A stretch of DNA of 64,000 nucleotides, taken from the NCBI GenBank assembly GCA_047601445.1, contig JASGJH010000001.1, forward strand, positions 8,480,001 to 8,544,000. The letters are read 5' to 3'. The notes beneath the pieces are model-generated. The model saw only the letters and a program-made list of their open reading frames with translations. It did no database searches and was not told the origin of the DNA. This DNA comes from Myxococcales bacterium. GTDB taxonomy: Bacteria > Myxococcota_A > Polyangia > Polyangiales > DASUME01. Below, piece after piece: positions 32,190 to 53,192 of the stretch. Both the position numbers and the translations under genes were made by a program. The number at the start of each line of letters is the position of its first letter. Position 1 is the stretch's first letter.

Positions 32190-32221
32190 GGTGGGCGCAC
32201 GTTGTCGCGGCGTGAGCACGG

Positions 32222-34215: not shown

Positions 34216-34275
34216 CGAAGAGCGCCTGAGCACACTGGCGCAAGAATATGTCACAGCCGAAGTATACCATCTTCA

Positions 34276-34617: not shown

Positions 34618-34841
34618 GGAGCTCGCTATCTGGCGGATCTATCTCATCGACGACGGGCAGTCCTTCCGTGTGGGACCCGGGTCCACGGCGTCGCTCGAAA
34701 TGTTCTCTTGGTACGAGCTGACCCTAAGCCGTTAGACACCAGGGACCACCCGAGCTCGACCGATCACGCGCACGGGGCTCACGTCCGATATGACAAGCTC
34801 CGGTAAAGCGCAGAGGTACCAAGGACACTCGGGAGGCAAGA

Positions 34842-35495: not shown

Positions 35496-35715
35496 AGCAC
35501 CGCGGCACCAAGCGCTCCCACCGGGACCAGGCCGCTATCGAGGCTGCCCACGAGCATGCCCGCGTCGCGCGTGGCCCAGGGCATGCCGGCCGAGGAGCCC
35601 GAGCCGACGGCCACGGTGAGCCGCAAGTACAGTGCCGCCCGAGGTGGCAGCGCTCGAGCCGCAGGTCTGTGCGTGGGACCCGAAGCCGGGGGGCGCAGCC
35701 GAAGCGGCGGGGCGG

Positions 35716-36603
35716 TCAGTAGCCGGGAAACCGGGGGCTTCCAAGATTGAGAATGGCGTCGTCTCCAAGACCATTGAAGGTGCACCCGCTCAAGTAAGTT
35801 CGCCCAGCGTGGAAGATCTCGAGAGGGTTGCAGGAGCCGTAGAACGTCGTGTCGGACCTTCTCCTTGCGACGGGAGTTCCCAGCGGATCGCCGATTTGGA
35901 AATCCCACCCGTGGCCATGAATTCGAAACCCGTAATTGGTACCATCGATTTCGTAGCCATTGCCGAGGCCCATTTTCAGTCTCTCAACCTCGACCATGTT
36001 GTGTTCGGGTCGAAACGTCATAGTCGCGACAACATCTCTAGGTCCGTTGTTGATTTGCAGCTTCTGACCTTCGAGCGTGATGTCCCAGCTTCCCCGCGAG
36101 AACACGACCGCGTTGCCTTCCATGCGGAGGGTCTCACGACCTTCGAGGTCAGAAAGCGTTCCCCACAATTCCCATGGCGCGCCGGGGTCTTCAGGCATCT
36201 GAATCCCGACGAGTACTTTGCGATTTACGCAGACGGCGAGCCTAGCTCCTGGAGCTCGGGCTCTCACAAGCAGGCCACCCATTCGGATGACAGACGTTTG
36301 AGACACGTCGAATGTCGGCCAAACAGGCGGGTTGGCTTTGCAAAATGGATTCGATCTCCACCCTGCAACGGCTCTAGCCGAAATTCGTCCGGAGGTTTTT
36401 TCTTGATGATCGGTGGGGCACAGCAGGGCTATGCCCTCTGCGCGGTGCTCCTCTGCGTCCTCAAAGGGCGGGTCGAAGTGCTCGTAGTGAACGGGAAGCC
36501 TCCCGCACCGAACACAGCCGAAGCCGCACTGACGGCGTACCTCCCGCATCACAGTCTCTCTAAGATCGGACCGCCTAAGTCCGAAACGATTCGGGTCTGC
36601 CAT
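35716..36603 (-). CDS. HNH endonuclease domain protein with beta-rich C-terminal region
   Basis: VRRQCGFGCVRCG...YEHFDP...GIALLCPTDH. Confidence 0.75.
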   Translation of the reverse strand: MADPNRFGLRRSDLRETVMREVRRQCGFGCVRCGRLPVHYEHFDPPFEDAEEHRAEGIALLCPTDHQEKTSGRISARAVAGWRSNPFCKANPPVWPTFDVSQTSVIRMGGLLVRARAPGARLAVCVNRKVLVGIQMPEDPGAPWELWGTLSDLEGRETLRMEGNAVVFSRGSWDITLEGQKLQINNGPRDVVATMTFRPEHNMVEVERLKMGLGNGYEIDGTNYGFRIHGHGWDFQIGDPLGTPVARRRSDTTFYGSCNPLEIFHAGRTYLSGCTFNGLGDDAILNLGSPRFPGY

Positions 36604-37170
36604 TTGGTCGACTATCCTTTAGCCAAATCTACTTTTCCGATTCCAAGGGGCGCAAGCACGGCGGCCACGCGCTGGTCGAGCTCGGCGAGCACGTCAGGGT
36701 ACTTCTCGGCCACGATGGCGCGCGACTGCGCTACCTGAGTCGAGAGCTGCTCACGGGGACTTGGGCAGGCTGCTGACCGCGGCCTCGTCGCTTTGCAGCG
36801 CCGCGCACCCCTGGCCCTCGCAGCTCAAGATGGCCGCCACCTAGGCGTTGGAGCACGCCGCCGGCTTGATCTTGTGCTTCGTGAGCGTCTGCTGCAGCTC
36901 GGCGAGCTCGCGCTCGAGCTGCACGATGCCCTGACCGTCCTCGTGAAGCTGGGCCCTGTCCACCACGCCCGACTCCTTGCCGACCTCGCGCTCGGTGGCG
37001 AGCGAGGCCTCGAGCTGGGCAAGCAGTGACTTGGTAGAGCAGATTCGAACCTGCTGGCCGAGTTCCGCCGCAAGTAATTGCGAGTGGTGGGAACTGCCGG
37101 CGAAGAGGACACGCGGGCACTGGCCGAGGCTTGAAGCTCCCCCAGTTCCGTTGACACGCAGGAGAAACTG

Positions 37171-37509
37171 ATGCGTGTTCGGAAGCACAACAAGTACACC
37201 GATGAGTTCAAGGCAGAGACGATCGCGCTGATGAAGCGGGACGACCGCAGTTTTGCCCAGTTGTCCGTGGATTTAGGCATCAGCAGCTGGACCTTGCGGG
37301 AGTGGTACAACAGAGACGAGATGGCCAAGAAGAGCAAGCGGAAGCCGGGGGTACCGGTCGCTCCGGTACCTGCTGCTGAAACGGCAGAGGAGAAGGCGGC
37401 CCGGCTGGAGCGGGAGAACGAGCGGTTACGCAAGAAGGTGGAGTCGCTCGAAATGGACCGCGAAATCCTAAAAAAAGCGGCAGCCTTCTTCGCGAAGGAA
37501 AGCGAATGA
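37171..37509 (+). CDS. IS3 transposase OrfA
   Basis: KYTDEFKAE HTH; ILKKAAAFFAKE; A7G slippery site at 37470-37477. Confidence 0.93.
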   Translation: MRVRKHNKYTDEFKAETIALMKRDDRSFAQLSVDLGISSWTLREWYNRDEMAKKSKRKPGVPVAPVPAAETAEEKAARLERENERLRKKVESLEMDREILKKAAAFFAKESE

Positions 37510-38381
37510 GGTTCGCCTTCATCCACGCGGAGAAGGCGAACTTCCCGGTGTCAGCGCTGTGCCGGAACCTGCAGGTGACCCGGCAGGGGTACTACGCGTT
37601 CGCGAGTCGCCCGCCGAGTCCCCGTGCGGACCAGGACCGGGCCCTCTTGGAACGGGTCGGCCAGGTGCACGCGGAGAGCCGCAACGCCTACGGAAGTCCG
37701 CGAGTTCGAAAGGAACTCCGACGTCGTGGCATTCGGGTCGGCAAACGCCGGGTGGAGCGCGCCATGCGGAGCTTGGGGCTCTGCGCCCGGCCTCGTCGCC
37801 GGTTCCGTGTGACCACCGCTGCAAATCCGCGGCATCCAGTCGAGCCTAACGTGCTCAACCGCGAGTTCCGCGCCGAACGTCCCAATCAGCGCTGGGTGAC
37901 GGACATCTCGTACGTCTGGACCGACGAGGGCTGGTGCTACCTCGCTGTCATCATCGACCTGTTTTCCAGGACCGTCGTGGGCTGGGCTCTGGACGCCATG
38001 CTCTCGACCCAGCTGCCCCTCGCAGCGCTGGACATGGCGCTTCGGCGCCGTCGTCCCGACGCAGCAGGCCTGCTCCACCACTCTGACCGGGGCTGCCAGT
38101 ACACGAGTCAGGAATACCGCTCATCGCTCGCCCAGCACGGGCTCTCGGTCAGCATGAGCCGCAAGGGCAACTGCTGGGATAACGCGGTCGCGGAGAGCTT
38201 CTTTTCGACCATCAAGGCCGAGCTAATTCACGGCCGACGTTGGGCCGGACGCCTTGAGCTCCGGTCCGCAGTCTTCGAGTACATCGAGGTCTTCTACAAT
38301 CGGCGGAGGCTACATTCGTCACTGGGGTATCGGACCCCAGCCGAGTTCGAGAACGATTACACTGCGGCTCAGGCCGCCTAA
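37506..38381 (+). CDS. IS3 transposase OrfB (DDE), -1 frame to OrfA
   Basis: WVTDISY; HHSDRGCQY; GNCWDNAVAESFF; YNRRRLHSSLGY. Confidence 0.95.
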   Translation: MRFAFIHAEKANFPVSALCRNLQVTRQGYYAFASRPPSPRADQDRALLERVGQVHAESRNAYGSPRVRKELRRRGIRVGKRRVERAMRSLGLCARPRRRFRVTTAANPRHPVEPNVLNREFRAERPNQRWVTDISYVWTDEGWCYLAVIIDLFSRTVVGWALDAMLSTQLPLAALDMALRRRRPDAAGLLHHSDRGCQYTSQEYRSSLAQHGLSVSMSRKGNCWDNAVAESFFSTIKAELIHGRRWAGRLELRSAVFEYIEVFYNRRRLHSSLGYRTPAEFENDYTAAQAA

Positions 38382-38602
38382 GCAAGTGTCAACGGATTCG
38401 AGGGAAGCCCAGGCTCTCCTCCGCGGGGACTCGCTCGAGGTCGACGCCCACCTGCCCGAGAACACCATCGCGCTCGTTCCAGGGCGCGTGGTCTTCCAAA
38501 GCAAGGCGCACCTTGAGGCCATGGTCGAAGCGCTCACGGGCAAGCCCGTTGGGAACTCAGGTGCTGTCGTGCTGCCGTTTAGGCGAAAACCTGAATGAAA
38601 TC

Positions 38603-38648
38603 TGGTCGGGGTTGCCGGATTCGAACCAGCGACATCTAGCTCCCAAAG
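38603..38648 (-). repeat. att site: copy of the tRNA-Pro 3' half
   Basis: 44/46 identity to 53116-53161; match runs through the anticodon loop and stops just beyond it. Confidence 0.93.
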
Positions 38649-38780
38649 AACAGCTCGGCTGTCATGGCCTGTCTTGCTCTGTCTTGGTTTTTGCGCCAAA
38701 AACACCGGCGTTTTGAACGTTTTGGCCTCTTTGGGGCCTAGCGTGTCCAGGCTGGCTTTGGCATCCTTGGTCGACGATTT

Positions 38781-38811
38781 GTGGCAGCAAATGTAGCAGC
38801 AAGGTGGCAGC
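38781..38811 (+). repeat. Putative integrase arm-type sites (left end)
   Basis: GTGGCAGCAAAT-GTAGCAGCAAG-GTGGCAGC tandem; same motif at 53031-53052. Confidence 0.7.
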
Positions 38812-38851
38812 GCTTTGTTGCCGCGGGTCGCGGACGGCTGAGGGTAGGTAA

Positions 38852-40282
38852 GTGGCAGCGAGCAAGAAGCGTCGTGGTCGAAAGCATCCGGGCGTGACGA
38901 TCATGAAGCCCAATCCAGCGCGACGGATTGGCTGGCGCCTCCGCTACAAGGACCCTGACTCAGGCAAAATGCGGTACGAAAGTCTCGACTCGGACGTCAC
39001 CACGGAGGATCGACGAGTCGACGCAGCTGTGCAGCGCTCGCGCGAGATTGGAGCGCGCGCTCTTGAAATCGATCGGGGCGCCGACCCACTGCACGGCAGT
39101 GATTTGGTTCAGGCCATTGCGGCGTACCATAAGGCCGCGGAGGTTGAGCTACGGGACAAGACCGTCGCGTTGTACAAGCGCGCGACGGACATGTTCCTGG
39201 AGTGGGCTAGGGCCCACGGCATCAAATCGACGAGGGATCTCAAGGCCGCCCGACTGCCCGGGTTCCGGGACTACTTGCTCGCGCAGCGAAAAAAGGCGTA
39301 CGTGCGAGGCGGCAAGCGTGGACAGCGTAAGGCGGGGAACGAGAAGCTCTCGCCGCAGACGATCAACTGGCAGCTGCGCGCCGTCAAGACCGCGCTCAAC
39401 CATCTTCGCTCACGAGGGATGGTGCCGCTCACGAGCGACGACATCGCCGATCGCCTAAAACCGGTGGAGGTCCCACAGGACGATCCGGAGTTCTTGCGTC
39501 CGCAGGAGTGCGTAGCTCTGCTCGAAGCCGCCCTGCGGCACGATGCTGAGACGTTCGCCGAGACTCGATCGGAGCACCGAGGTATCGGCACAGCGGGAAC
39601 GACGCCAAAATACGATCCGATTGCGCCACTCGTGGCCACCGTGCTCTTGGGGGGCTTTCGCATCGGCGAAGCGCTGGCTGTGCGATGGAGCGCCGTGGAT
39701 CTCGCTGTACTCGACAGCGAGGGTAAGCCCAAAGGCGAGATCCGCTTGAAGGCGAGCGAGACCAAGACGAAACGCGCACGCACCGTCGAACTGGGTGTGT
39801 CGCCATCGCTGCGTATTCTCCTCGCCACGATGAAGCTGAGGGCCGGGGATGCGCAGTTTGTGTTCGGCGGCGATGGGCCGATGCCCCGTTCGTCCGCGGA
39901 GGCTGCGCGGCGGCGCCTCGTCGGTGAAGTGCCCAAGAAGGCACGCAAGATCGAACCAAAGAAAAATCGCAAGCAAACGCCAGCGGTCGATTTTGGCGCA
40001 CCGCGCAACTTCACATGGCAGGCGCTTCGCTCGACTTGTGCCACCTACCAGTGCAATGCGCCCTCCATCTTTGGAGACGCGGCTGCGTTTAGAAGCGCTA
40101 AACGCTTGGGGCACTCAATCACCGTGAGCGAGAAGCTATACGCGAATCAGTTCTCGGTATCGCATGCTGCAAGGACGTTGGAGCAGGCCATGGGGATCGA
40201 GGCCATCATGGCTCGAGTCATCGAATCCGCGAGCGGCTACCGCGTGCCCGCGCCGCCTCTGCGAGCTGTGGCAGCAGAGTGA
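38852..40282 (+). CDS. int: Tyrosine recombinase/integrase
   Basis: GFRIGE (R), TKTK (K), WQALRST (HxxR variant), RLGHS, LYA (Y); lies beside the att copy. Confidence 0.88.
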   Translation: MAASKKRRGRKHPGVTIMKPNPARRIGWRLRYKDPDSGKMRYESLDSDVTTEDRRVDAAVQRSREIGARALEIDRGADPLHGSDLVQAIAAYHKAAEVELRDKTVALYKRATDMFLEWARAHGIKSTRDLKAARLPGFRDYLLAQRKKAYVRGGKRGQRKAGNEKLSPQTINWQLRAVKTALNHLRSRGMVPLTSDDIADRLKPVEVPQDDPEFLRPQECVALLEAALRHDAETFAETRSEHRGIGTAGTTPKYDPIAPLVATVLLGGFRIGEALAVRWSAVDLAVLDSEGKPKGEIRLKASETKTKRARTVELGVSPSLRILLATMKLRAGDAQFVFGGDGPMPRSSAEAARRRLVGEVPKKARKIEPKKNRKQTPAVDFGAPRNFTWQALRSTCATYQCNAPSIFGDAAAFRSAKRLGHSITVSEKLYANQFSVSHAARTLEQAMGIEAIMARVIESASGYRVPAPPLRAVAAE

Positions 40283-41097
40283 GGATTCGCGTGCAGCGGC
40301 GAACAGCTATGGCAAGCAGGGAAAGCGTGTCAGCAAACAAGACGCAACCGAAGCTGGCTGCAGCTCAGAGTCGAGAGCAGAGCCGACCTCCGATGTCCGC
40401 CGAGACGCTCGGGTTGGCAAAGCAAAGACATCGCGAGCTTAAACGCGAATCCGACACGCTTGCGGTCAGACTGGTCGAGATCGTCGAACACTGCGCGGTG
40501 CTTTCTGACGCATGCGGCGCTTTGGCTGCCGAGATCGCCAGGGCCGAACCCGGGTCCGAGGAAAAGCAGGTTTGGGAGCGCATTGCCCAGAGCGACAAGG
40601 CAGCGAGTAAACCTGAGTTCACAAAGGCAGCGCGCGCGCTCGTCGGAGTCATTTCGAAGGCCTTGGTCACGCAGCGCAGCGACGACGTTTTCGTGCTTGC
40701 GGAGCGCTTGGACTCGCGACGGAAGCGGGAGTGGCTCATACGGTGTGCGGCCATTCGGAGATTGCACGCAGTCGGAATGATGAGCATGGGCGAGCAGGGC
40801 CTCGTTGACCTGCTCGCAGACGTCGATGATCACGCGCGGTCTCTTGCCGTCGACGCCATCGCAGAGGCGCTCCAAGACAAGCGTCAGACAAAGCGCAACG
40901 ACCAAAAGGAAGCGAGCCCGGATGCTCGCTTGGCCGCGTCTGTCGGCGTGCTTCGATTCGCCGCGCGCCTCGCGGCCATGTGCGGCGCTCTTGGTTATGG
41001 AATGCGCGCGTATCGGGGCAAGGAGGAGGAGACTGCTTACGAGGCTTTCAAGATGCTGGTCAGGGAGGACCCGGAGCTCGGGTCCCAGCTCTCGTAA
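40279..41097 (+). CDS. Hypothetical helical protein
   Basis: 272-aa ORF overlapping the integrase stop (GTGA). Confidence 0.6.
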   Translation: MRIRVQRRTAMASRESVSANKTQPKLAAAQSREQSRPPMSAETLGLAKQRHRELKRESDTLAVRLVEIVEHCAVLSDACGALAAEIARAEPGSEEKQVWERIAQSDKAASKPEFTKAARALVGVISKALVTQRSDDVFVLAERLDSRRKREWLIRCAAIRRLHAVGMMSMGEQGLVDLLADVDDHARSLAVDAIAEALQDKRQTKRNDQKEASPDARLAASVGVLRFAARLAAMCGALGYGMRAYRGKEEETAYEAFKMLVREDPELGSQLS

Positions 41098-41299
41098 CCA
41101 CTGATTACGATCAGGCGAGCAACTGGGGAGGTGGTGTCCCCAAGACCCCAGGGGGCACGTTCGACGAAGGTGCCTTCCCATGAGAGTCCAAACGAACGAG
41201 CTGCTCGCCGTTGCCGCAACCGGCAAGCACGCTCTCAATCCGAATAAAACCTGCGGACACACCTGCCTCGACAGCGCTTCGAGCGTAACCAGCGAGGCT

Positions 41300-41578
41300 A
41301 TGAACCTGGGAGCAGTCGCGCTTCTCTCAGAACTGATTCGCGCCAGCGTGCGCGAAGAACTCGAGTCAGCTCGCATCGCGTTTGCTCCGCCGCCGGCGGC
41401 TGCCTTGTCTTCGCACGTCGATGTCAAAGAGGCCCGCGTACTCCTGCGCTGCAGCGACAAGACCGTGCGCCGCATGGTGGATCGCGGTCTGCTCAAGAAG
41501 GCCAAGTTGGGGCTCGGGGAGGGCTCAAAGCTGCTGATTTCTCGCGAATCAATCGATCAAGTTCTGGGGGGTGTGTGA
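41300..41578 (+). CDS. HTH_17/excisionase-like DNA-binding protein
   Basis: VDVKEARVLLRCSDKTVRRMVDRGLL...LLISRESI. Confidence 0.8.
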   Translation: MNLGAVALLSELIRASVREELESARIAFAPPPAAALSSHVDVKEARVLLRCSDKTVRRMVDRGLLKKAKLGLGEGSKLLISRESIDQVLGGV

Positions 41579-43938
41579 TGGGTACGAGTGAAGTTCTCTA
41601 CAGCGAGTCGTCCTTGGCCGAGGCGGCGAAATGGTACGCCCACCAGCAGCTCTTCGTGTTGCCGTGCGCGCCGAAGCAGAAGGTTCCGGCGATCAAAGGC
41701 GGGCGTGGTAGTCGCGATGCGAGCAATGATCCGGCCTTCCTCGAATCCATCTGGAATGAGAATCCAGCGTTCAACATCGGCATCGCCACGGGGAGCCGCT
41801 CCCAGGTGGACGTGCTCGATGTGGACGGCGAGTCTGGCGAAGCAGCGCTTGCCGCTCTCGAAGCGGAGCACGGGCCTCTGCCGGTAACCCCGACTGTCCG
41901 CACAGGGAAGGGGCGCCACTTCTACTTCAAGGCCGTGGACGGCTTGCGGAATAGCCAACGGAAGCTCGGGCCTGGTCTCGACATCCGTTCTGAGGGCGGG
42001 CACGTGGTCGCTCCCCCGAGCATTCATCCCAGCGGGGCGCGCTACGAGTGGGTTGAAGGGCGTCGACCTGATCAGGTGCGCCCGGCTCCTATGCCGCAGT
42101 GGATCATCGATCTCCTGCGCTCGACGAGTATTTTGCAAGTGTCGTCCTTAAGTGTCGCGGCGAGCACGACCACCCCGTACGCGCATAAGGCGCTGGAAGA
42201 TGAATGCAGCGCAGTAGCCAACACTCCCAAGGGGAATCGGAATGGGCGCCTTAACCAGGCAGCGTTCGCACTCGGGCAGCTGATTGGTGCGGGCGCTCTC
42301 GACGAAAACGAGGCGCGCGCCGAACTGACCGTTGCCGCCTCCGCATGCGGACTCCCCGCAGGCGAGGCACGCCGCACGATCGACAGCGGCCTTGAAAGCG
42401 GAAAAACGCAACCGCGCATCATCCCGGACGCGAGCGCGCGCGTGTCGGAGAATCGCTTTCATGTCTCGTCCGAGTGGAGCGAGGCCGCTGAACTTCCGGG
42501 GCTGCTGCCCGTGCCGAAGTGGGACGAGCGTCTGCTGCCCGAGGTGCTGCGCCCGTGGCTGTGTGACGTTGTCGAGCGCACTCAGTGTCCCCCGGAGTAC
42601 CCAGCAGTCGGAGCAATGGTTGCTCTTTCTTCGACCGTAGGACGCGGGTGTGCGATCAGGCCCAAGTGCCAGGACGATTGGACTGTCGTGCCGAACCTTT
42701 GGGGCGCGTTGGTAGGGCCTCCGAGTGCGATGAAAACGCCGGCGCTTCGGGAGGCGCTGCGCCCGTTGAATGCGCTGGCCGCCGCGTCTTCGGAGGCTTA
42801 TGCGGAACATGCTTTCGACCGCGAGCAGATCGCCTCGCAGCGAGCTGCTCTGAAGGCGCAGATGGACAAACTTGCAAAGGCCGGCCATGACTTGGCAGAG
42901 CTGCGGCCGGAATACGAGATGCTGAATCAGCGTGAAGCCCAGCTGAAGGGCGAACGCCGCTACATCGTTCACGATGCGACGATCGAAAAGCTGGGGGAGT
43001 TGCTGCAGGCCTGCCCGCGTGGCGTCCTGCAGTTCCGCGACGAGCTTGCCGGCTGGTTCGCCTCCTTGGATCGTCCGGGGCACGAGAGCGATCGAGCGTT
43101 CTTTCTTGAAGCGTGGAACGGCAATGATGGCTTCACCTATGACCGCGTGGGTAGGGGAACGGTGCGCATCGAGGCCGCCTGTGTGTCCGTCTTGGGGGGT
43201 ATCCAGCCGGGGCCGCTTGGCCGGCATCTTCGCGCGGCGGAGTCCGGCGGTGTTGGGGCTGATGGCCTAATGCAGCGCTTCCAGCTCCTCGTCTATCCGG
43301 ATCAGTCGCGCGATTGGCGGAACGTGGACCGCTGGCCAAACTCGGTGGCCCGCGATCGAGCGCATGCCCTGTACAAGCGCCTTGCCCACGCCACTGCCCA
43401 GGAAATGGGCGCAGATCAGGACGCGGACATCCCGTTCGTGCGGTTCGACGATGAAGGCCAAGAGTTCTTCGATCATTGGCGGTACACGCTTGAGAAGCGC
43501 CTTCGCGCCGGCGAGGAGTCGGATGCAATGGAGGGGCACCTCGCCAAGTATCGTTCGCTGCATCCCAGTCTCGCGCTGCTTTTCCAACTTGCTGACCACG
43601 GGCGTGGCCCAGTGGGGCTCGTGGCCGCTCAGCGCGCGGCGTCGTGGTGCGCACTTCTTGAGGCGCATGCTCGCCGCGTGTACGGATCGACGTCGGCGGG
43701 GCCCGTCGCTGCGGCGCGCGTCATCCTCACGAAGCTTCGCGCGCGCAAGCTGCCAAACCCTTTCACGAAGCGCGACATCTGTCGTCCCGAATGGGCCGGG
43801 CTGAGCGACTCAGCCGTCGTCGAGGCCGGCCTACACGTACTCGAGCAACACGGCTGGTTGCGCACGTTGTCCGTGCCCACGGGAGGTAGGCCGCGGGAGG
43901 AGATTCACATTCACCCCTCGCTGCTCGGGGGCCGCTGA
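41578..43938 (+). CDS. Bifunctional primase/polymerase (Prim-Pol) fused to a DUF3987/YfjI-like domain
   Basis: NIGIATG; VLDVDG; TVRTGKGRHFYF; DIRSEGGHVVAPPSIH; then VPNLWGALVGPPSAMKTP, FRDELAGW, GGIQP, DGLMQRFQL. Confidence 0.88.
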   Translation: MGTSEVLYSESSLAEAAKWYAHQQLFVLPCAPKQKVPAIKGGRGSRDASNDPAFLESIWNENPAFNIGIATGSRSQVDVLDVDGESGEAALAALEAEHGPLPVTPTVRTGKGRHFYFKAVDGLRNSQRKLGPGLDIRSEGGHVVAPPSIHPSGARYEWVEGRRPDQVRPAPMPQWIIDLLRSTSILQVSSLSVAASTTTPYAHKALEDECSAVANTPKGNRNGRLNQAAFALGQLIGAGALDENEARAELTVAASACGLPAGEARRTIDSGLESGKTQPRIIPDASARVSENRFHVSSEWSEAAELPGLLPVPKWDERLLPEVLRPWLCDVVERTQCPPEYPAVGAMVALSSTVGRGCAIRPKCQDDWTVVPNLWGALVGPPSAMKTPALREALRPLNALAAASSEAYAEHAFDREQIASQRAALKAQMDKLAKAGHDLAELRPEYEMLNQREAQLKGERRYIVHDATIEKLGELLQACPRGVLQFRDELAGWFASLDRPGHESDRAFFLEAWNGNDGFTYDRVGRGTVRIEAACVSVLGGIQPGPLGRHLRAAESGGVGADGLMQRFQLLVYPDQSRDWRNVDRWPNSVARDRAHALYKRLAHATAQEMGADQDADIPFVRFDDEGQEFFDHWRYTLEKRLRAGEESDAMEGHLAKYRSLHPSLALLFQLADHGRGPVGLVAAQRAASWCALLEAHARRVYGSTSAGPVAAARVILTKLRARKLPNPFTKRDICRPEWAGLSDSAVVEAGLHVLEQHGWLRTLSVPTGGRPREEIHIHPSLLGGR

Positions 43939-44483
43939 TGTCTGCCTACCTGGAAGAGGGCTTCCTCTCGACACTCGATCAAGGCGCACGGCCCAAGCGC
44001 GCTGGGGGGCCACTGTCAGAACTGCCAAAAGTCCACACGCTCGGGCTCACGGAGCGCGAGTCACCTTCTGTCAGTTTTGGCAGTGCCCCTCGTGCCCTCG
44101 TGCAGGAGCCAGCTGTCCGGGAGGTGCTTGGCTTTCCGGCGAGGTGGCTTGCTGGCCTGCCCATTCCCGCTGTCCTCGTACTTGTGCATCGGGAAGACTC
44201 CAACGACGTATTCGTGGACTTCCGCGATGAACCTAGGGAGCTGTCCTTCGACGCCGAGGAGTGGAGCGCCATGGTTAGCGCGGCTGAGTACGGTCGCGCG
44301 AGTCCGCGGGACGCGGACCGCTGGCTGGATCGCAAGCGAGTGCACTCGTGGTTCCGGGTTACGGAACTCGAGGCGCTAGGGGGGCGGATTCGAGGCGAAC
44401 GCTTGCGGCTTACCGTTGGCGCAGTGCTGCTCGAGTATGGGCTTCACCTTCGCGAGGTCATCGCCGACAGCGCGTTTCGGTAA
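43938..44483 (+). CDS. Hypothetical protein
   Basis: 181-aa ORF translationally coupled (TGATG) to the Prim-Pol gene. Confidence 0.6.
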   Translation: MSAYLEEGFLSTLDQGARPKRAGGPLSELPKVHTLGLTERESPSVSFGSAPRALVQEPAVREVLGFPARWLAGLPIPAVLVLVHREDSNDVFVDFRDEPRELSFDAEEWSAMVSAAEYGRASPRDADRWLDRKRVHSWFRVTELEALGGRIRGERLRLTVGAVLLEYGLHLREVIADSAFR

Positions 44484-44730
44484 CGCGAGGCCGTCCCGTT
44501 AGTCGGAGCCGTCTGGCTGGCGGGGCTGCGAGACGCGGGCCGAACGCTTTTCGGGCGATATCCGGCTGCTCGGTGCCCACCCCCCGGCGGAAAGGTACTT
44601 CTCGGGCGGGGCGTGGTTTGCGGGTGAAATGCGCCCGTCGGTGTGAAGGTCAGCAACGGATTAAGAAAATAGAAACCGGACTCAAGGCAACCGCCAAAGT
44701 TGCCTCTGTTCGTCGATAAGGCAGGGGCGA

Positions 44731-46091
44731 TCACTTGTCCTGAGGGCCATTTTTTCCGAAGAACACGTGAATGTCGTGCTGCGGGTGAGCCAGACGATTG
44801 CTCGCTCCCCTTCTCACAAGAACTCTGTTGTCTGCATCGAAGTAGGGAGGCTCGGTTCCCGGGGCTACCTTGATCACGACGAGATGAGTGCCTTTGTACA
44901 GGATCGGAGTTGTGCTGAAGTCTGGAGCTTTCGCCGATAGACGAAGTCTGATGGCGTCACGAATCGCGGCGCAGTAGATCGTCAGGCCCCATTCTCCGCG
45001 TCAATGGACTTCTCTTTAGCCCACTTGCGAAACCATCCCTCGGACACGATGTCCCGGCATTGAATGTAGTCGCTTACGCCCAGGAGGATTGTTCCGCCGT
45101 CCGTGTTCGCGAACGCCACCACGGCTTCCACGATCTCCCGAAGCTTTTCGGAGTGGCCCGGCGCAACCGCGGGCTTGAACTCGACCATTCGATTCTCGCC
45201 CGACTCGAGGCACTGTTCTACGAGTTGTTGAAGTTCCGGAATCACCGCTCGCTTGATCGTCACGACCCGATTCGAGTCTCGGCCTTTAGCTGCATACCAA
45301 TGATCCACGGTGGTGCCTGCCTCGTCGACCAGCGCGATCTCATGATTCCGACCCTCCAAAGGGATCCGCGTCCACGGGATTGCCGGCTCGCTGAACGCCC
45401 GCCACTGGTCTCCAACGTAGGAGCCGCCCTTCACCCTCCAACCCTGGCCTTCCTCGGCGCTGATAATGGTTTCGATCTCGGCCGAACGCCGGCCCCACTG
45501 GATTGCACCAATCTGCCCGCGAAGGTCGGGAATGAAGAGAACGAAGCCGCCGGTTCTGGAATCGTTTGCTCCGCCGTAGGATGGGAACCGGCACCACGAC
45601 TTTGCGGCCACATAGATGTTTGGAAAATAGTCGTGCATCTCGCCGCGGCCCGTGACGTGCTCGTGGACGTTGGGAATGTCATGAGCTGCGCGTCCCTCGC
45701 ACCAGATCGCGACTCCCGGCCAACGAGAGAGGCCATTTTCTGAAGGGCACCGGAGCGTCGTGAACGTTGGATCGGGCTTCGGCTCGAATCCCGCGACTGG
45801 AAAACTCGTCAGGCCGCGCGCAATGGCTGCCTCGAGCACGTCCACATCCATCTCTGACTCCTCAAGGACGAGGCCGTTCTGGTACTCGAGTCGGCCACGG
45901 AGGACGGTTTGCTCATCCACGGACTGTCCGATAACTGTGGTCAGAACATTCCGTGCGATTCCTTGAAGGTTCACGTAGGCGGCTTTGACGATGAACCGAG
46001 CGATGCGTCCTCGATTTGTCTTGAGTGCGGAGCTCGCGATCTGGCGGGTGTCCTCCGGTGACTGGTTGCTCCGCAGATAAATGCCGTCCAT
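44731..46091 (-). CDS. Unknown N-terminal domain + C-terminal Schlafen/AlbA_2 domain (one frameshift at ~44988)
   Basis: GENRMVEFK...VVAFANTDGGTILLGVSD; adding one G to the GGGG run continues into LVVIKVAPGTEPPYF...VRRGASNR, stop at 44731. Confidence 0.8.
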
Positions 46092-46343
46092 GTGAAAACG
46101 TTAGGCGATCTCAGCCGGGTTTCAAAGCCATGCAAGGGAAGCCATCGCGGGGCGCCAACTAGCCACGGCGTCCTGTCGTAGAGCCGGCGCGGCAAGGTGA
46201 CAGGACTGCGAAGCGTCCGTTGGCATCAGGAGCTCGGAGGCGCGAGCTACGGAGTTGCAGGCCCATACGTGATCGATGTGGGCGCTTGTAGGGGCAGGCG
46301 GTTCGACGCGGCAAAGCGCAGGCGAGGGCGTAGAATCCCGTGC

Positions 46344-47752
46344 ATGGATTCAGGTCTAGCCCAGCGCCGAATGGCACTCTTGAAATCATTCATCGCGGAA
46401 GCCGAGAGATACTCAAGATATGGGCACGCCTCTTCGGGTGGCACCATCGACGATTTGGCGTCCATGGCGAACGAAAGCGCTGCCGCTAGGTCTGCGCTCA
46501 ATCGCATGGTGGTGGCCACAAAGGAGGCTACACAAGCTGCAGGCCTATCGTGCCTGATCACCGTCAGGCCGCCACGGGGGCGTTCGGGGCTAATCCATGA
46601 TGATGTGGACGTCTTCGAGCAACTGTTCACTGGCCCGTATGACGTGGATCTGGTCTCAACCGCTGCCGAACTCGCAGAGAAGGCGCTCGGCGTATATCAG
46701 CATCACGCGGAAGGTTTGCTTCAACTTGGAGCCGAGCAAGTCGAGACTGAGCAAGGGCATCGCAAGTACACGATTTTCATCAGCAGCACCTACGAGGACT
46801 TGAAGGAGCAGCGCGATCTTGTAGCGAAGGCCATTCTTGAGATGGGTCACATTCCGGTAGGAATGGAGATGTTCAGCGCTGCAGACGAAGAGCAATGGAA
46901 AATCATCCAGCGTGCGATCGACGATAGCGACTATTACGTAGTTGTCCTCGCGCATCGCTATGGTTCGCTCACCGGCGAGATTAGCTACACGGAGAAGGAG
47001 TACGACTACGCGGCGGAGCGAGGCATCCCGTGCTTAGGGTTTATTCTCCGGGATGACGCGCCGTGGCCGCACAATCATCGCGATCCCGAGTCAGCAAAGG
47101 TGGAGGCGCTCAAATCGTTCAAAAAGAAGGTTGAGCGAAAACCCGTGGGGTACTGGAAGAGCCAGGACGAGCTTCATGGCAAGGTGGCTGTCGCGCTAAT
47201 GAAAGCGTTCAACGCCCAACGTCGTCCAGGTTGGTGCGGGGACCCGGGACAACCGACCCGAACATGGTTGCGGAGTTCGCCAGGTTGAGTAGGGAGAACG
47301 AGGCGCTTCGCAAGGAACTTGAAGTGGCGCGCGCAGAACAGGAGACAGATCGAAAGCATGCGCGTCTTTGTGAAATCCTTGCCAGCAACAGAGTTGCGTT
47401 TCTGGTAGGTTGGGACGATATTCCCGAGCGGCAGGTTCAGGCAACTCTCCTGGATGTCTTTGGTTGGTTGGCTCCGAACCTCGTTGATCCGATGACGACT
47501 GAGTGGGCGTCTCGGATTGTCGCCTCCTCCGCCTTACGCGAATCAGCCCATCGAGAGATCCGCGCCACAGGAGACTCGCACACCATTTTCGTGCAGGCGT
47601 TTACCGACTTCATGGCGTACGGACTAGTGAGTGCGAAGCCAAATGGCGTCGGGAATACCAAGTGGACAATCACTGCGAGCGGACTCGACTTCCAATCGTT
47701 CCTGCGCCGGAGGCGAATGGAGTCCCAGGTTCGTGAGGGATTGCCTGTGTAG
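46344..47752 (+). CDS. DUF4062 (TIR-like) domain protein with N- and C-terminal extensions (one frameshift at ~47233)
   Basis: KYTIFISSTYEDLKEQR; GMEMF; IDDSDYYVVVLAHRYGS; SYTEKEYDYA; one added G restores RPGWVR and joins ORF 47231-47752. Confidence 0.82.
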
Positions 47753-47826
47753 AGCAGAAACTTGCTCCGTTTGTGTTGAGATCTCATGGGCCGTTAGTTG
47801 GCCCCCGGGTGGCCGGTGCGGGGATG

Positions 47827-48756
47827 CTAACCCCGAATCGGCAGCAGGCTCCCACCGACCTCAACACCGTCATACCCGAATGATTGGAGCAGTCCATGCA
47901 GAGCGTGGCCGGCGACGTCCCGATTCGCGGTTGGACCGTGAAGGACGCCAGAGATCGGGAGCGTTGCACGCGGGGTCCCGCTCGGTAGCGGGCGGCCGTA
48001 TTCGATGTACGGCGTCAAGCCGTACCTTCCAACCCTATACTTCGCGCCATTCCAGGGCCCGCTCTCTCCGCAAACCAACCGCCACTCTTGCTCGGCCTTA
48101 AAGGCGGGATGCTTGAAAGCGAGGAGTAGTCGCAGAAGAGGTTGATGAATGTATACGCGCAGCGCCTTATCCGATTTGTCGACATCGCCATCATCGGGGA
48201 AGTGGGTCTCCGCATACTTGACGACGATCCCTAGTAGTTCATCAAGCAGTGCCCGTTGCTCATCTTCCTCGTATACGACCCGGATTAGAGAGAAGTGGTG
48301 ACGTGGCCGTGCTTCCTCTTGCCCTTGGAGAAGTTCTCCGGTGTTGAAGCGAAGGGAGTAGCCATCGTTGGGCGCATACACTCGCCACTGATTGAGCAGA
48401 TTTCCGTCCTCACAAAAACACGCCACGTAGAATGCAAACTGGGTCGTCACCCATTGTCCCTTGAATGGCTCCAACAGTCGGCGCGCGGCTGCGTTGTGAG
48501 TTCCTTTCAAGCAATCATCGATTGCCTGGTCGAGGACAAGGAGCGGATAAAGCGATTCGGACGAGTCGTTGAGGTACAGTGAGTTAGTTGCCCAGAGGCA
48601 ACCGTGCTCGAGTATCCCGATAAGTCCGCGTACGTCGGTATAGTGGTAGAGGTATTTGGGGGGCGTCGAGTGCAGTTGCTCCGCTTTCGCCCTTTGGAGC
48701 TCGCTCGGAAATGCCTCTATGATTTCTAGACGCTGCTGAGCGTTGCGGAAAGCCAT
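47827..48756 (-). CDS. DUF2971 family protein
   Basis: LYHYT...GIL...LWAT...YLND; YVACF...LLNQWRVYA; FKHPAFKAEQEWR. Confidence 0.82.
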   Translation of the reverse strand: MAFRNAQQRLEIIEAFPSELQRAKAEQLHSTPPKYLYHYTDVRGLIGILEHGCLWATNSLYLNDSSESLYPLLVLDQAIDDCLKGTHNAAARRLLEPFKGQWVTTQFAFYVACFCEDGNLLNQWRVYAPNDGYSLRFNTGELLQGQEEARPRHHFSLIRVVYEEDEQRALLDELLGIVVKYAETHFPDDGDVDKSDKALRVYIHQPLLRLLLAFKHPAFKAEQEWRLVCGESGPWNGAKYRVGRYGLTPYIEYGRPLPSGTPRATLPISGVLHGPTANRDVAGHALHGLLQSFGYDGVEVGGSLLPIRG

Positions 48757-49041
48757 GACGAGTAGGCTCTCATGAGCCCGACAGCGGTACCAGTCCTTCC
48801 TCTTGGGGCTCGCAAAGGTTCCGTCAGCATGGGCGCGCACGCTCGCCGATCCGGTTTCGGCCGGCCACGGCGGGCTACCGCAGTTCAGCGGCCGGCGCGC
48901 CGGCACCTGCCAGGAAGCTTGACAAGGGCCCGGGAACGCCCCCCGGGCGGTACAGAGGCTTTCGAGCTCCACTATGTTGCGGTAGAATCGGGACACTCGG
49001 CCGCGCCTACTCTCCGTAGAGCGCTGTGGCGCATCGGACTT

Positions 49042-51082
49042 ATGTATCTAAGAACTCTCACACTGAAGAACTTTCGTTCCTGCGCAGAAACAACCGTCAA
49101 GCTCGATAGCGTGCTTACTGTGTTGGCAGGCGAAAACAACGCCGGTAAGAGCAATATCCTCGATGCGCTTAGGCTGGTGTCGGCGCCGTCCGATACCCGC
49201 CGAGGGCGCAGTTTTGACGTCGACGACCTGCGAATGGGCGCTGGAAGACTTCAGCTAAGCGCCGAGTTTGCCGAGCTCGACGCGGCCCAACGTGGCCTGT
49301 TTTTTACCGCATTAAAGAGCAACAACTCGGACGAGGCGCTCTATCACCTATCGTGGGAGCCACCTCTCGGCCGTTCAAGGCGTCGGTGGGCGTCGTGGAC
49401 GACGGGCGCTTCAGGCGCTCCGGAACAGGAGCCCGATGTTCGGGATCTTATTCGGCACGTCCATCTCCCCGCGCTTCGCGATGCCGATCGAGACTTGGCC
49501 TCGAGTAGCCCAGGTCGGATTCGAGTTCCTGTTGCGTCAACTGCTTGCCGGCAACGACGAAGAAAAGGAAAAGCTACTTCGAAGCGTGCGCTCAGCATCG
49601 ACGACACTGCTTAAGGAGCGCCCACTTCATGCTGCGCGAGAGCGCGTAAGCGAGGTGTTTCGTCCTCTGTCCGCAGGGTTTCACGCGCACGACGCTCATC
49701 TACGATTTGCCGACGCCTCGCTCGTAGGCCTTGCTCGCGACCTGCGGTTCTCTCTGTCGCATGAGGGGTTGGACCCCGATCGTGTTCTTCAGACGGGGCT
49801 CGGCTATTCAAACTTGTTGTATTTGGCGACTGTTCTCGTAGAGCTGGATGCCGCACGCGACGCCGAGCTGACCTTGCTACTGGTTGAGGAGCCGGAGGCA
49901 CACCTGCATCCGCAGCTGCAACGCGCGACGCTGGCCTTTCTAGAGGGAAAGGCGAAGGAGTCTGCGAACAGAAAGTCTGTGCCAGGAGAGCATGCCGGCC
50001 GCATTCAGGTTGTCGTTTCGACCCACTCACCAAATCTAACGGCCGCCACTTCGATCGAGCGGCTGGTCATAATGCGAGCAACTCGGACACGGCCTTCGGT
50101 CCCGGCACGACCTGGCGAGGTTAGGGAACTACCCCCGGTGGGCCGCGCGCCCGTGGAGGGTAACATCGCCGAGTCTATTCCTGGTGACCAAAACTCCGTC
50201 GCACCTGGCACAGGTTCCGAGGCACAGCACAGCATCTCGGCCCCGACTGAATCTTTCGCAGTGGCGATCCGAGACCTCGAGCTGCCAAAGCAGGATTTGC
50301 GCAAGATCGATCGCTATCTTGATGTTACTAAGTCGACTTTGTTGTTCGGGCGCAAAGTGCTGCTGGTGGAAGGCATCGCAGAGGCTCTGCTGATCCCGGT
50401 GCTGGCCGAGTTGGTTCTCACACCCGCGGAGATGGCGAGCTTTCGTGCAGTCTCCGTGGTCGCCATCGACGGGGTGGACTTTGAACCGTACGTGCGGCTG
50501 CTCCTGACGGCACCAAAAGGTACAGCGAACTCGATCGCGGACCGCGTGGTGGTTGTTACGGACGAGGATCCTTCCGCCTCCACGCAGGCGAGCAAATCCG
50601 CGCAGCAAACTGAGGCGGAGCCAGATGAGGGGGCCAATGCAGCGGCTGGGCCACCCGTTGCAAAGAAAACCAAAGGCGCGCGAGCAGCAGGACACACACG
50701 GAAGCAAGGGCTCGAGAAACTTGCTGCGGAGCACGGAGCGACTGAGCGTCTACACGTTGAGCTTACCCCGCTAACGTTTGAGGCCTCCTTATTATCCAGC
50801 ACCCCGACGGCCGCCGCCGCTGGCGAGTTCGTGAAACTAGCATTCGCATCTTGCGATGGAGGGGAGCAGCGTGACAAGGCGTGGGCCACGCGGATAGACG
50901 CGTTTCCGATCGAGGAGCGGGGTAAGCGATTCGTCGAGTGGCTAAAGTCAACCGGCACGCGAAAGGGAGACTTCGCCCAGGCCCTGGCGCAGGTCATCGA
51001 GCAGAAGCGAGCAACCGAAGCGAACTCGCGCTTTCCAGTTCCAGAGCACCTCGTTCGCGCTTTGCGGGTGCTGGTCGGATGA
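49042..51082 (+). CDS. OLD-family ATP-dependent nuclease (ABC ATPase + TOPRIM), GajA-like (one frameshift at ~49521)
   Basis: LKNFRS; GENNAGKS; GLGYSNL; LLVEEPEAHLHPQLQ; STHSP; LLVEGIAE; TDED; removing one T joins the two ORFs. Confidence 0.88.
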
Positions 51083-52842
51083 CGAAATCGAGCAAGCCAA
51101 CGAACGAGCAGCTTTCAGTTGTCGGGGCTGGTGGGCATCTCCTGGTGCGTGCTTGCCCCGGGGCTGGAAAAACCAGGACCATGGTCGCCTTGGGGGAGCG
51201 GGCTGCTGCAACGGGAGGAGCTCGCTCCGGAGTAGCGTTTCTGTCGTTTACGAATGCTGCAGTTGACGAACTGAACCAGCGTCTTTGTGACACTGCAACG
51301 AATAGGGGGATGACGCGCGCACCGCACTACACGGGGACGTTCGACGCGTTCCTGATCAAGTATGTGCTTGGACCTGATGGGCACTCGCATGCGCCAGGTA
51401 TTCGGGTGCAGTTTCGAGACCACTGGGGAGGGCACCCTATCCGTTTCAAGGCAGGAAAGACGACAATGAGCGTTCCGCTCGATGTCTTTCTTCCAAACGG
51501 TCGCACAGTACGGCTCGACAAGAACCGAGCTCCTCACGGAGCCTATGCGCTACGCGCGTTCTTAGAGCGGCTTGATCAGCAGGAACGCGAGCGCCTGTGC
51601 GAGATTGGGAATCAGGAAGTACGGCGGCGCCTCAAGGCTGGTATCCTGACCTCTCCGTTTCTGCGCTCGGAGGCAAGGAAGCGGCTCGGTCGCGATCGTG
51701 CCAATGCGCATTTGGCCGCGCGCTTTCACACGGTAATAGTTGACGAGGCCCAGGACTGTGACGCAGTTGACCTGGAAATCTTGGACGCGCTCAAAACGGC
51801 TGGCTGCCGTTGCGTCGTGGTTGCCGACCCCGAGCAGGCAATCTTTCGGTGGCGTGATGCGGATCCAGCGCGCCTCTCGCTCCTAGGCTTTCCAGAGATG
51901 AGACTGACTGGCAACTTCCGGTCGAGCGACACGATTTGCCGAGCCGCTGCCACACTGCGAAGCGTCGAGAGTGAACCAGATACCGCCCTGGGACCTGCTG
52001 CCATGGTTCAGAATCCAGTCATTGTGGTGCCCTTCAGCACGGATGATCTCGATTCGGGTAAGGTTTTGGCTGAGTTTACTCAGGCACTCGAGCGAGCCGG
52101 CATAGATACCAAGAGTGCTGCGATTGTTGCTCATCGCGAGGCGCATGCTGGCCGCGTACTTGGAATACGCGACGACATAAGAGCATCAGAATCGTTTGCA
52201 GCTGTGCTGGCGCGGGGTAGTTCTTCGAGTGCCAGCTCGGCAGACCGAACAGCGGCTGTCCAACGACTGCAGGAAACCCTGGCGAGCGCGTTTGATCCGG
52301 CAGCTCGGCAAGATCCGAATCTGAAAGGGTGGATTCATCACACAGCCCGACAGGTGATGGGAGAGCTTGCGGGCCAACACATTTCCTTGTCTGGGGTGTG
52401 TAAGAGTACGAGGAAGATCCTGGCAGGGATCAGTGCGCCGCCGGGTCAGTCGTTTATCAAGGAGCCTGCGAAGTGCTTCACCGCGAAAGGCCGTGGCGCT
52501 GTCACTCCATCTAGCAACTCACCGGGTCCCCTGATGCGGTACTCAACTGTGCATGCCGTTAAGGGGCGAGAATACGACGCAGTCCTCGTGGTGGTTGGCG
52601 ACACAAGTTATTTGGATGAGCTCGTTGACGCATGGCGCGCACGCGACCCGGCCCACGAGGGGCGCGCGGTTCTCTATGTTGCAGCTACTCGCGCGCGCCG
52701 ACTGTTGGTGTTCGCTGTTCCCGCGCGCGTCTGCGACGCGGTTGCGGAACTGCTGAGGCGCCAAGGAGCGCCTGTTCAAGTCGCCTCGGGAGCTCGGGAG
52801 ACCGAGTTCGTGCTGCGTTGGAGCGCGTTGGAAACGGCCTGA
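51079..52842 (+). CDS. UvrD-like helicase, GajB-like
   Basis: ACPGAGKT; LSFTNAA; VDEAQD; DPEQAIF; NFRS; STVHAVKGREY; YVAATRAR; ATGA overlap with the OLD gene. Confidence 0.9.
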   Translation: MTKSSKPTNEQLSVVGAGGHLLVRACPGAGKTRTMVALGERAAATGGARSGVAFLSFTNAAVDELNQRLCDTATNRGMTRAPHYTGTFDAFLIKYVLGPDGHSHAPGIRVQFRDHWGGHPIRFKAGKTTMSVPLDVFLPNGRTVRLDKNRAPHGAYALRAFLERLDQQERERLCEIGNQEVRRRLKAGILTSPFLRSEARKRLGRDRANAHLAARFHTVIVDEAQDCDAVDLEILDALKTAGCRCVVVADPEQAIFRWRDADPARLSLLGFPEMRLTGNFRSSDTICRAAATLRSVESEPDTALGPAAMVQNPVIVVPFSTDDLDSGKVLAEFTQALERAGIDTKSAAIVAHREAHAGRVLGIRDDIRASESFAAVLARGSSSSASSADRTAAVQRLQETLASAFDPAARQDPNLKGWIHHTARQVMGELAGQHISLSGVCKSTRKILAGISAPPGQSFIKEPAKCFTAKGRGAVTPSSNSPGPLMRYSTVHAVKGREYDAVLVVVGDTSYLDELVDAWRARDPAHEGRAVLYVAATRARRLLVFAVPARVCDAVAELLRRQGAPVQVASGARETEFVLRWSALETA

Positions 52843-53030
52843 CGCCCTGGTTGGGTGCAACGAGGGAGGCTGGCGCAATGAAGGTAAAGCAAACGAACGA
52901 CCCCCTCCGCGTAGAGGTTGACCGCGTTTGCATAGCCGGTTTTCGGGAAGGGGGCCGTCCTGGCCGCGCGCGGGTGCGATCGCTGTCGCTTCGACCGGTT
53001 GCGGCACCACGGCGCGGGACGGCGCAAGTG

Positions 53031-53052
53031 GTAGCAGCAAATGTAGCAGCAG
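53031..53052 (+). repeat. Putative integrase arm-type sites (right end)
   Basis: GTAGCAGCAAATGTAGCAGCAG; 20/21 match to 38781-38801. Confidence 0.7.
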
Positions 53053-53118
53053 ACCCTTTAACGCACCGAAGGGCTGAACGGTGCCCGCCCAACCCTTCGG
53101 AAACACTCTGTCTTTTAG

Positions 53119-53192
53119 TCGGGGTGGCCGGATTCGAACCAGCGACATCTAGCTCCCAAAGCTAGCGCACTACCAGGCTGTGCTACACCCCG
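53119..53192 (-). tRNA. tRNA-Pro (TGG)
   Basis: Cloverleaf: CGGGGTG/CACCCCG acceptor, GCAC/GTGC D-stem, CTAGC-TTTGGGA-GCTAG anticodon arm, GCTGG-TTCGAAT-CCGGC T-arm; CCA not encoded. Confidence 0.97.

Follow-up and report, generated by a model that had tools for sequence, protein, structure and literature searches.

What kind of mobile element has settled at a proline tRNA gene of an uncultured Myxococcales bacterium, and do the genes that it carries include new defense systems? These questions are raised by a window of 64,000 nucleotides (GenBank assembly GCA_047601445.1, contig JASGJH010000001.1, positions 8,480,001 to 8,544,000; coordinates below count from its first letter unless the genome is named), in which an earlier note had described a phage-satellite-like integrative element with candidate new defense systems. 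The island spans 14.5 kb, is inserted at the proline tRNA gene, and lies inside a single 9.5-Mb contig. Directly established are its bounding attachment (att) sites at tRNA-Pro(TGG), its genes for a lambda-fold integrase, an HTH_17 protein, and a PrimPol-helicase, and an anatomy that recurs across the family of its integrase. With good confidence, we read it as a replicative integrative element that cannot transmit itself and that carries antiphage cargo. The element is real and known in kind, and its family is the interesting part. Its ends and backbone are organized as follows (aa, amino acids; ORF, open reading frame).

38605..38648, minus strand: att copy at the integrase-proximal end, a duplicate of the 3' 44 bp of tRNA-Pro(TGG), identical to 53118-53161 at 43 of 44 positions
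38784..38801, plus strand: putative arm-type integrase sites of the left end, 18 bp, a tandem pair with a 12-bp period, 135 bp inside the left att
38852..40282, plus strand: divergent lambda-like tyrosine integrase, 476 aa, inward-facing, assigned by alignment, fold match, and PHROG integrase match
40279..41097, plus strand: ORF of 272 aa overlapping the integrase gene by 4 nt (GTGA), a positional analogue of iolg of the phage-inducible chromosomal minimalist islands (PICMI)
41180..41578 (start possibly 41300), plus strand: HTH_17 excisionase/AlpA-like protein (PF12728, E 7e-9; TIGR01764 below cut-off)
41575..43938, plus strand: PrimPol-DUF3987 helicase fusion, the predicted replicase of the element (PF09250, E 5e-42; PF13148, E 5e-78)
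43938..44483, plus strand: post-replicase ORF of 181 aa, with no family match in Pfam, NCBIfam, or PHROGs
53034..53051, plus strand: putative arm-type sites of the right end, an 18-mer identical to 38784-38801, with about 67 nt between its end and the 3' end of the tRNA
53118..53192, minus strand: target gene, intact tRNA-Pro(TGG), whose 3' part (53118-53161) is the right repeat

The direct repeats do bound the element, as first proposed, and restore the tRNA; their length is 44 bp with one mismatch and not 46 bp, which needs a second mismatch. The tRNA-Pro(TGG) gene is the only Pro-TGG gene of the genome. The arm repeats were not part of the earlier note; their 17-mer core was found genome-wide (9.5 Mb, also when one mismatch was allowed) only at the copies at 38784 and 53034. 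By analogy with lambda-type recombination, the 18-bp tandem repeats are putative arm-type integrase sites, and both att/arm ends look functional from their sequence. The GC content of the cargo is 59.4%, compared with 66.3% for the genome, a value matched or undercut by 18 of 1,187 8-kb windows, and the backbone and cargo genes have no second copy in the genome. In nine same-genus genomes, no match to the element was seen at an E value of ≤1e-10 beyond the tRNA/att copy and one 66% integrase piece. Since the element is absent from all nine, a conserved core region was rejected, and the reading of an integrative element in a myxobacterium-like host holds.

The integrase had no Pfam match, and a PF00589 search of the genome missed it as well. 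Its product was matched by the PHROG integrase family (E 3e-22), and the best fold match of its AlphaFold2 model (pLDDT 84) was full-length lambda Int (1z1b; E 5e-7). Alignment placed the catalytic residues at R270, K305, Q-x-x-R393, H421, and Y430, with Gln replacing the His of the HxxR motif; among the 73 rows of an integrase tree, this position was Gln in 50 and Lys in 2 and was unread in 21. The gene adjoining the att site is therefore that of a tyrosine integrase with its catalytic residues, and the model indicates a divergent lambda-fold recombinase that falls below the Pfam cut-off.

Downstream, the order of ORF, HTH-type excisionase, PrimPol/DUF3987, and ORF was as the earlier note described. 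The ORF that overlaps the integrase gene has one homolog, likewise located directly 3' of an integrase (locus L142; 31% over 156 aa). In the replicase, the primase motifs and Walker A/B are intact, and DUF3987 has been described as a 5'-3' helicase (PMC11724360). The 181-aa ORF weakly matches the gene that follows the replicase in locus L022 (37% over 59 aa). Virion, terminase, and relaxase families gave no match among the 12 main ORFs in Pfam or NCBIfam or in a Pfam scan of 64 of the 105 minor ORFs (and a few more), and PHROGs gave no virion or packaging match in nine main ORFs (three Gabija pieces left out) or in any of the 105 minor ORFs. These scans bear out the claim of a backbone free of virion and conjugation genes. 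Integrative conjugative or mobilizable elements (ICE/IME) carry a relaxase and/or a type IV secretion system (T4SS). We observed no relaxase or T4SS match in the element, although a bare oriT was not searched for, and an ICE/IME identity was rejected on this basis. A complete prophage was rejected because virion genes are lacking.

The backbone raises the possibility of a true PICMI-like phage satellite, in which a specific helper phage would induce the element and a cis signal would lead to its selective packaging without capsid remodeling; we consider this possible, at somewhat below even chances. The parts of the published PICMI search model are co-localized here, namely, an integrase, an AlpA protein (PF12728, where the model takes PF05930 or PF12728), and a primase (PF13148, where it takes PF13148 or PF19263), and they occur in the int-iolg-alpA-prim order, with the 4-nt GTGA overlap marking the iolg/icg analogue by position. 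Against this stand the absence of any packaging or interference gene, a target that is tRNA-Pro and not fis, and a size of 14.5 kb, roughly double the 6.7 kb that PICMI average.

The integrase matched in 18 of 101 related genomes (this one included), among them 6 of the 9 same-genus genomes, and in 7 of 401 genomes across the phylum, all 7 in the order of the host. A scan of genome contigs with the single protein found none, and an alignment-based search then gave 27 loci, most of them titled Polyangiales, Polyangiaceae, Sandaracinaceae, or Myxococcales, with 6 from Planctomycetota; by these titles, a Polyangiales myxobacterium is the most likely host. Metagenomes contributed 66 loci. Four IMG/VR contigs carry the integrase, a point that, together with a 36-kb prophage in the host, favors a PICMI-like satellite, whereas no match among 50,697 phage records speaks against one.

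The relatives share the anatomy of the element. A tRNA T-loop motif lies within 330 bp upstream of the integrase gene in 28 of 32 family loci, and a pair of arm-type repeats with an 11- to 13-bp period occurs in 25 of 32, compared with 16 of 256 control windows. Where enough sequence was available, a co-oriented HTH_17-like gene was found within 3.5 kb downstream in 36 of 51 loci, compared with 1 of 51 on the other strand, using a profile built partly from the same 51 loci. Fourteen candidate complete elements of 4.1 to 15.9 kb, which include two pairs of close relatives, were delimited; in 10, at least 34 of 40 bases match the tRNA, and in 9, the two ends have in common a repeat, 44 to 68 nt from the tRNA, that exceeds every control in length. 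The targets of the family include Pro, Gly, Val, and Arg tRNAs. In the selected ORFs surveyed, the replicase is swapped (PrimPol, D5, DnaB, DnaG, PolA, or DUF3631) or absent, and the cargo varies, with restriction-modification, toxin-antitoxin, and STAND genes as well as Rhs, collagen-repeat, and PKD proteins. Such variable cargo among the relatives supports the earlier note. Overall, the lineage appears to be an undescribed family of tRNA-targeting islands; neither it nor its satellite-like members in Polyangiales were met in the literature searched.

Some members carry further features of their own. Loci L027 and L028 have a family A DNA polymerase as replicase. Behind a family integrase, L035 holds a replicase-less defense island (L035:1880-16753) with an AAA+/S8 protease pair, a Schlafen, DUF3800, Hen1-Pnkp RNA repair, and Mrr genes. 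L174, described below, also carries a NarE-like ADP-ribosyltransferase (ART) gene.

Packaging or virion genes are present in at least 14 of 51 relatives and in none of the ORFs of this element. Four complete tRNA-bound relatives of 10 to 11 kb carry a small terminase gene (terS; L165), a capsid-protease gene (L174), or a large terminase gene (terL; L175 and L176) and no other packaging genes; their anatomy is satellite-like, which makes them the best satellite candidates of the family and adds to the case for a PICMI-like satellite. In a quick tree of the 73 integrase rows, packaging and nonpackaging types are interspersed, and the packaging labels need at least six changes on supported branches; 39 rows are unlabeled, several as duplicates under another locus id, terS-bearing L024 entered as unlabeled L008, and L070 is labeled packaging solely by its origin in a viral collection. 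The integrases nearest to ours sit mostly on nonpackaging or unlabeled elements, which counts against a satellite.

The interspersed tree also bears on a second explanation, a cargo-only island like the cargo tycheposons, moved by vesicles, generalized or lateral transduction, or DNA uptake without a specific helper. The layout is that by which tycheposons are defined, and their cargo and PICI-like types (PICI, phage-inducible chromosomal island) share one integrase lineage (10.1101/2020.12.28.424599), as the repeated changes of packaging label suggest here too. Many relatives with Rhs, collagen-repeat, or PKD cargo fit such a life, whereas replication by a PrimPol-helicase and an all-defense cargo would fit a phage-triggered one better. 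We hold this explanation tentatively, as one that may well be wrong.

The cargo, for which the domains SLFN_AlbA_2, DUF4062, DUF2971, AAA_15/OLD-TOPRIM, and UvrD named by the earlier note were all confirmed in Pfam, consists of five genes, three of them with a frame break.

44731..46091, minus strand: predicted sensor-Schlafen fusion, with an N-terminal domain of about 290 aa and a C-terminal SLFN nuclease
near 44980: Schlafen frame break, a single base lacking within a short run of G/C
46371..47752, plus strand: Swarożyc-type DUF4062 (NIR) NADase (KpSwz, 10wc, E 6e-31), catalytic Glu kept
near 47234: DUF4062 frame break, a single base lacking within a short run of G/C, between the NADase and the stalk/auxiliary domain
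47827..48756, minus strand: intact DUF2971 protein of ADP-ribosyltransferase fold, 309 aa (PF11185, E 6e-11)
49042..51082, plus strand: gajA, OLD ATPase-TOPRIM nuclease (PADLOC PDLC00073, positions 1-165 and 164-587 in two frames)
49518: gajA frame break, one extra base (+1) at a GATTC site
51079..52842, plus strand: gajB, intact UvrD-like helicase with intact motifs, overlapping gajA by 4 nt

The Gabija-like pair was recovered by PADLOC as adjacent GajA (E 3e-133) and GajB (E 1e-104), with both models matched over their full length. As in known Gabija, gajA and gajB adjoin and their motifs are intact; in contrast, gajA has here an apparent +1 break and an insertion in its TOPRIM region.

Among the homologs of the DUF4062 gene, 75 of 119 match both frames, that is, they continue into the next frame, and one of them (P0004) aligns to KpSwz over its full length. 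Read across the break, the gene comprises DUF4062 with the catalytic Glu and a C-terminal auxiliary domain; its frame is not continuous, and it does not begin with the NADase domain. Swarożyc has been described as a portal-activated NADase defense, and DUF4062/NIR as a general defense effector (10.64898/2026.05.01.722283; 10.64898/2026.09.04.749371). DUF4062, stalk, auxiliary domain, and catalytic Glu are common to those NADases and to this one, whereas the gene studied here has about 130 extra N-terminal residues and a frame break before the sensor part. A start within 20 aa of the NADase domain was seen in 118 of 119 homologs, and the extension had no relative in the Atlas, a word-indexed protein search (167-534 aa), 72,556 plasmids, or 400 other genomes of the phylum. 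The stretch may represent a genuine domain, or it may be an open frame that is never translated.

Proteins of the DUF2971 family have an ART fold (PMC12522546), and Aristaios is a tested single-gene DUF2971 antiphage system (PMC11381338) of similar size (316 aa, compared with 309 here), the likeness being drawn at the family level only. Over at least 80% of its length, the protein matched 204 of 220 plasmid records, several of which adjoin qatD.

The Schlafen family was missed by the word-indexed protein search; a full HMMER scan gave 320 relatives at an E value of ≤0.001, mostly of about 450 aa with the nuclease at the C terminus. Both frames are matched by 77 of the 147 aligning homologs, and the Ex4ExK motif (E298/E303/K305) is invariant in 115 of 115 aligned. 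For the N-terminal domain, comparison without a model of the family itself gave weak beta-sandwich look-alikes (TM 0.24 to 0.35). Bacterial Schlafens have been described as tRNA-cleaving defenses, with 55 catalogued architectures including Ig.Ig.pSlfn (PMC13056530). As in pSlfn5, where an Ig-like sensor domain is joined to a Schlafen, an Ex4(E/D)xK Schlafen nuclease is fused here to a putative sensor; the nuclease is C-terminal, whereas it is N-terminal in the tested RorSlfn5, and the Ig.Ig.pSlfn variants are catalogued in the same work. A separate 2,337-aa protein (P0124) contains 22 Schlafen-domain stretches and may be an assembly artifact.

Because Swarożyc/NIR, Aristaios, and prokaryotic Schlafen defenses have already been published as antiphage effectors, the genes beside Gabija are, by their sequence, defense genes of known kinds, and the claim of candidate new defense systems found no support. 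Any novelty in the cargo would lie in the domain combinations and in the N-terminal extension of the DUF4062 gene, and two of the genes concerned may be broken.

The frame breaks in the Schlafen, DUF4062, and gajA genes had gone unnoticed. In conserved control genes, 10 of 175 loci were flagged, and after two edge stops, one paralog pair, and one duplicate had been dropped, six true breaks remained, including one in clpX; five of the six lie at GATTC/GAATC. The resulting rate, 6 per 185 kb, is somewhat too high, since three rows (3 of 33) were carried over from an earlier set in which they had been flagged. Of 19,866 GATTC/GAATC sites in the whole genome, 172 show a +1 frame switch, a rate about fourfold that of three control motifs (2.0 to 2.1 per 1,000). 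We also observed that the excess, about 130 sites above background, looks like methylation-related long-read error. The +1 break of gajA at GATTC matches this error pattern of the assembly, so it is probably an assembly error and Gabija probably intact. A TetR-like gene just outside the element (53851-54469) also seems split into two frames.

The two other breaks bring in a third explanation, a decaying island, excisable on paper and shedding toxic abortive-infection genes, much as an older neighbor has lost its integrase. At most one of the six control breaks lies outside GATTC, and two such breaks arising by error in 7.4 kb have a Poisson probability of about 0.001; non-GATTC breaks are thus rare in the controls, and a real loss of these two toxic effectors comes out at near even odds with error. 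Each of the two genes is one base short, and the element is single copy, both of which agree with decay. On the other hand, both losses lie in short G/C runs, a typical place of long-read error, the assembly has proven indel errors, even in clpX, and conserved genes can stand in only imperfectly for accessory DNA. Moreover, no damage is seen in the backbone frames, in the catalytic residues, or at either att/arm end. Overall, we judge decay of the island unlikely, though worth keeping in view.

Outside the element, the following neighbor occupies the same tRNA site and is not part of it.

30350..38604: older, integrase-less tandem island, with a degenerate third att at 30350-30391

This third att had not been seen before. 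In the older island, no integrase was found, and no arm-type pair was found at its ends; its content includes an OmpA-like gene and a partial copy of it, an NDT/TIR-like gene of 344 aa (32762-33796), an HNH-like gene on the minus strand (35716-36603), and an IS3-family insertion sequence (37171-38381) with seven genome copies in two variants. Adjoining the oldest att, an Rhs-core-like ORF was recognized by eye (28678-30078), its C-terminal domain being unassigned. A 49-kb accretion marked by genes at 3221-4097 was rejected, as the window holds no further att copy. Different islands occupy the tRNA-Pro(TGG) site in four of the five same-genus genomes with at least 3.7 kb of flank, while one (G008) looks empty; the site is a hotspot. 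The island at tRNA-Pro of same-genus genome G004 (L097:8533-12019) encodes a Cap4 nuclease and two further genes, which we take to resemble a Lamassu-type operon.

Elsewhere in the host genome, a prophage of about 36 kb (positions 8017821-8053637 of the genome) lies at tRNA-Leu, with terL in two pieces; it is a candidate helper. SEFIR/TIR-like and SIR2-like genes were recognized in it by eye.

Several observations weigh against a replicative, defense-carrying element moved by others. As assembled, three of the five cargo genes are broken. Excision, replication, packaging, and protection were not observed. No pac/cos-like sequence is common to the element and the prophage (the best matches are of 15 nt, E 0.5). 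A VirB4-family gene (PF03135) was not found in the whole genome, which offers no sign of a conjugative helper. Finally, in the supported 25-row clade that holds this integrase, one row is labeled packaging and 15 are unlabeled. Satellite status is, on present sequence evidence, plausible but unproven: agreement with the PICMI search model and the satellite-like members of the family favor it, whereas no gene for packaging or for redirecting capsids was found in the element, nor any link to a helper.

Under our preferred reading of a non-self-transmissible replicative element, the integrase would have recombined the attP of a circular form with the 3' end of the tRNA gene through the core and the arm sites with their 12-bp period. 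The HTH_17 protein, perhaps with the ORF overlapping the integrase gene, as for AlpA and IolG of PICMI, would switch the reaction to excision, and the PrimPol-DUF3987 protein would amplify the excised circle. The DNA would leave the host in particles encoded elsewhere; among the routes, passive packaging by a phage, on the pattern of PICMI or of island I55 of Pseudomonas, may be the single most likely, if one that we would still not bet on. Specific packaging by a phage takes a substantial minority of our expectation on transfer, nonspecific routes a similar share, and present immobility the remainder. The element would persist by protecting its host, with effector activities transferred from published homologs. 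Gabija, probably intact, would nick DNA, and DUF2971 would probably ADP-ribosylate a target. The other two effectors depend on their frame breaks being errors of the assembly; in that case, the Swarożyc-type NADase would deplete NAD+ when it senses a structural protein of a phage, and the Schlafen would act as a tRNase.

A wider conjecture can be put forward, which we think somewhat more apt to fail than to hold. The lineage of integrases that Pfam misses would be an undescribed family of myxobacterial phage satellites, in which terminase- or capsid-gene members (L165, L174, L175, and L176) and capsid-less defense carriers share one att/arm chassis and exchange modules for replication and cargo. 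The present element would then be a PICMI-like member that a myxophage, possibly the prophage of this host, packages, and its NADase would be a Swarożyc variant whose N terminus supplies a second sensor.

In kind, the element is no surprise, since small integrase-primase islands with defense cargo are familiar from Proteobacteria, Firmicutes, and marine cyanobacteria. For myxobacteria, a survey of 3,229 genomes lists plasmids, prophages, insertion sequences, transposons, integrons, and 10 ICE/IMEs, with satellites, in the portion of its text consulted, only in the references (10.64898/2026.09.14.751636). No report of myxobacterial satellites was found in the literature searched, a scope that leaves out about 1.7 million PMC articles and most subscription papers. 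The element is therefore a handle on the myxobacterial mobilome. An integrase profile built from the family finds such elements, and their cargo slot is a source of defense variants; automatic defense calls on this assembly will undercount, as it breaks genes at GATTC sites. For Polyangiales genetics, the tRNA-specific integrases of the family, whose arm sites can be read from the sequence, are possible tools.

How does the element compare with known systems? PICI and capsid-forming PICI carry terS and/or capsid, portal, and head genes, and P4-like satellites carry sid, psu, and delta. Here, PHROGs gave no head or packaging match in the 9 main and 105 minor ORFs scanned, and sid, psu, and delta had no match in Pfam or PHROGs. 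PICMI are described as int-iolg-alpA-prim elements of Vibrionaceae, with a mean of about 6.7 kb, fis as their hallmark, and no capsid genes, in which defense genes also lie between prim and the target gene (PMC10803314). The present element shares the integrase gene, the ORF overlapping it by 4 nt, the AlpA/HTH_17 protein, the DUF3987 primase, the lack of capsid genes, and defense genes between prim and target; it differs in its tRNA-Pro target, its greater length, its Myxococcota host, its PrimPol fusion, and an integrase below the Pfam cut-off. Lacking a PF00589 match, it would probably be missed by the published PICMI model. Because PICMI are defined by fis and Vibrionaceae, it is not a strict PICMI, and it is not a member of PICI or P4 either.

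The Pseudomonas islands I23, I44, and I55 are likewise integrase islands bound by direct repeats, with defense cargo and no transfer genes, and I55 is described as transduced by a jumbo phage; in contrast, they target tmRNA, carry alpA at the far end, and are presented in the main text of their report without mention of a primase (PMC12595487). The Seonamhaeicola AgaPP/PriCT-DUF3987 element is also integrated at a tRNA and has an integrase, PrimPol, DUF3987 helicase, and defense genes, whereas its PrimPol and helicase are separate genes, its primase belongs to another archaeo-eukaryotic primase family, and it carries a long-B prokaryotic Argonaute (PMC11724360).

The tycheposons are described by an inward-facing integrase, a partial tRNA, an adjacent replication module, and cargo (10.1101/2020.12.28.424599), a layout that is found in full here. 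Their hosts belong to another phylum and their cargo is different, and the comparison is one of layout and not of integrase kinship. As described in that work, the likeness extends to the tRNA target, the excisionase, the swappable replication module, the tandem accretion at tRNAs, and a single lineage that contains cargo members together with members carrying terS or the major capsid protein gene.

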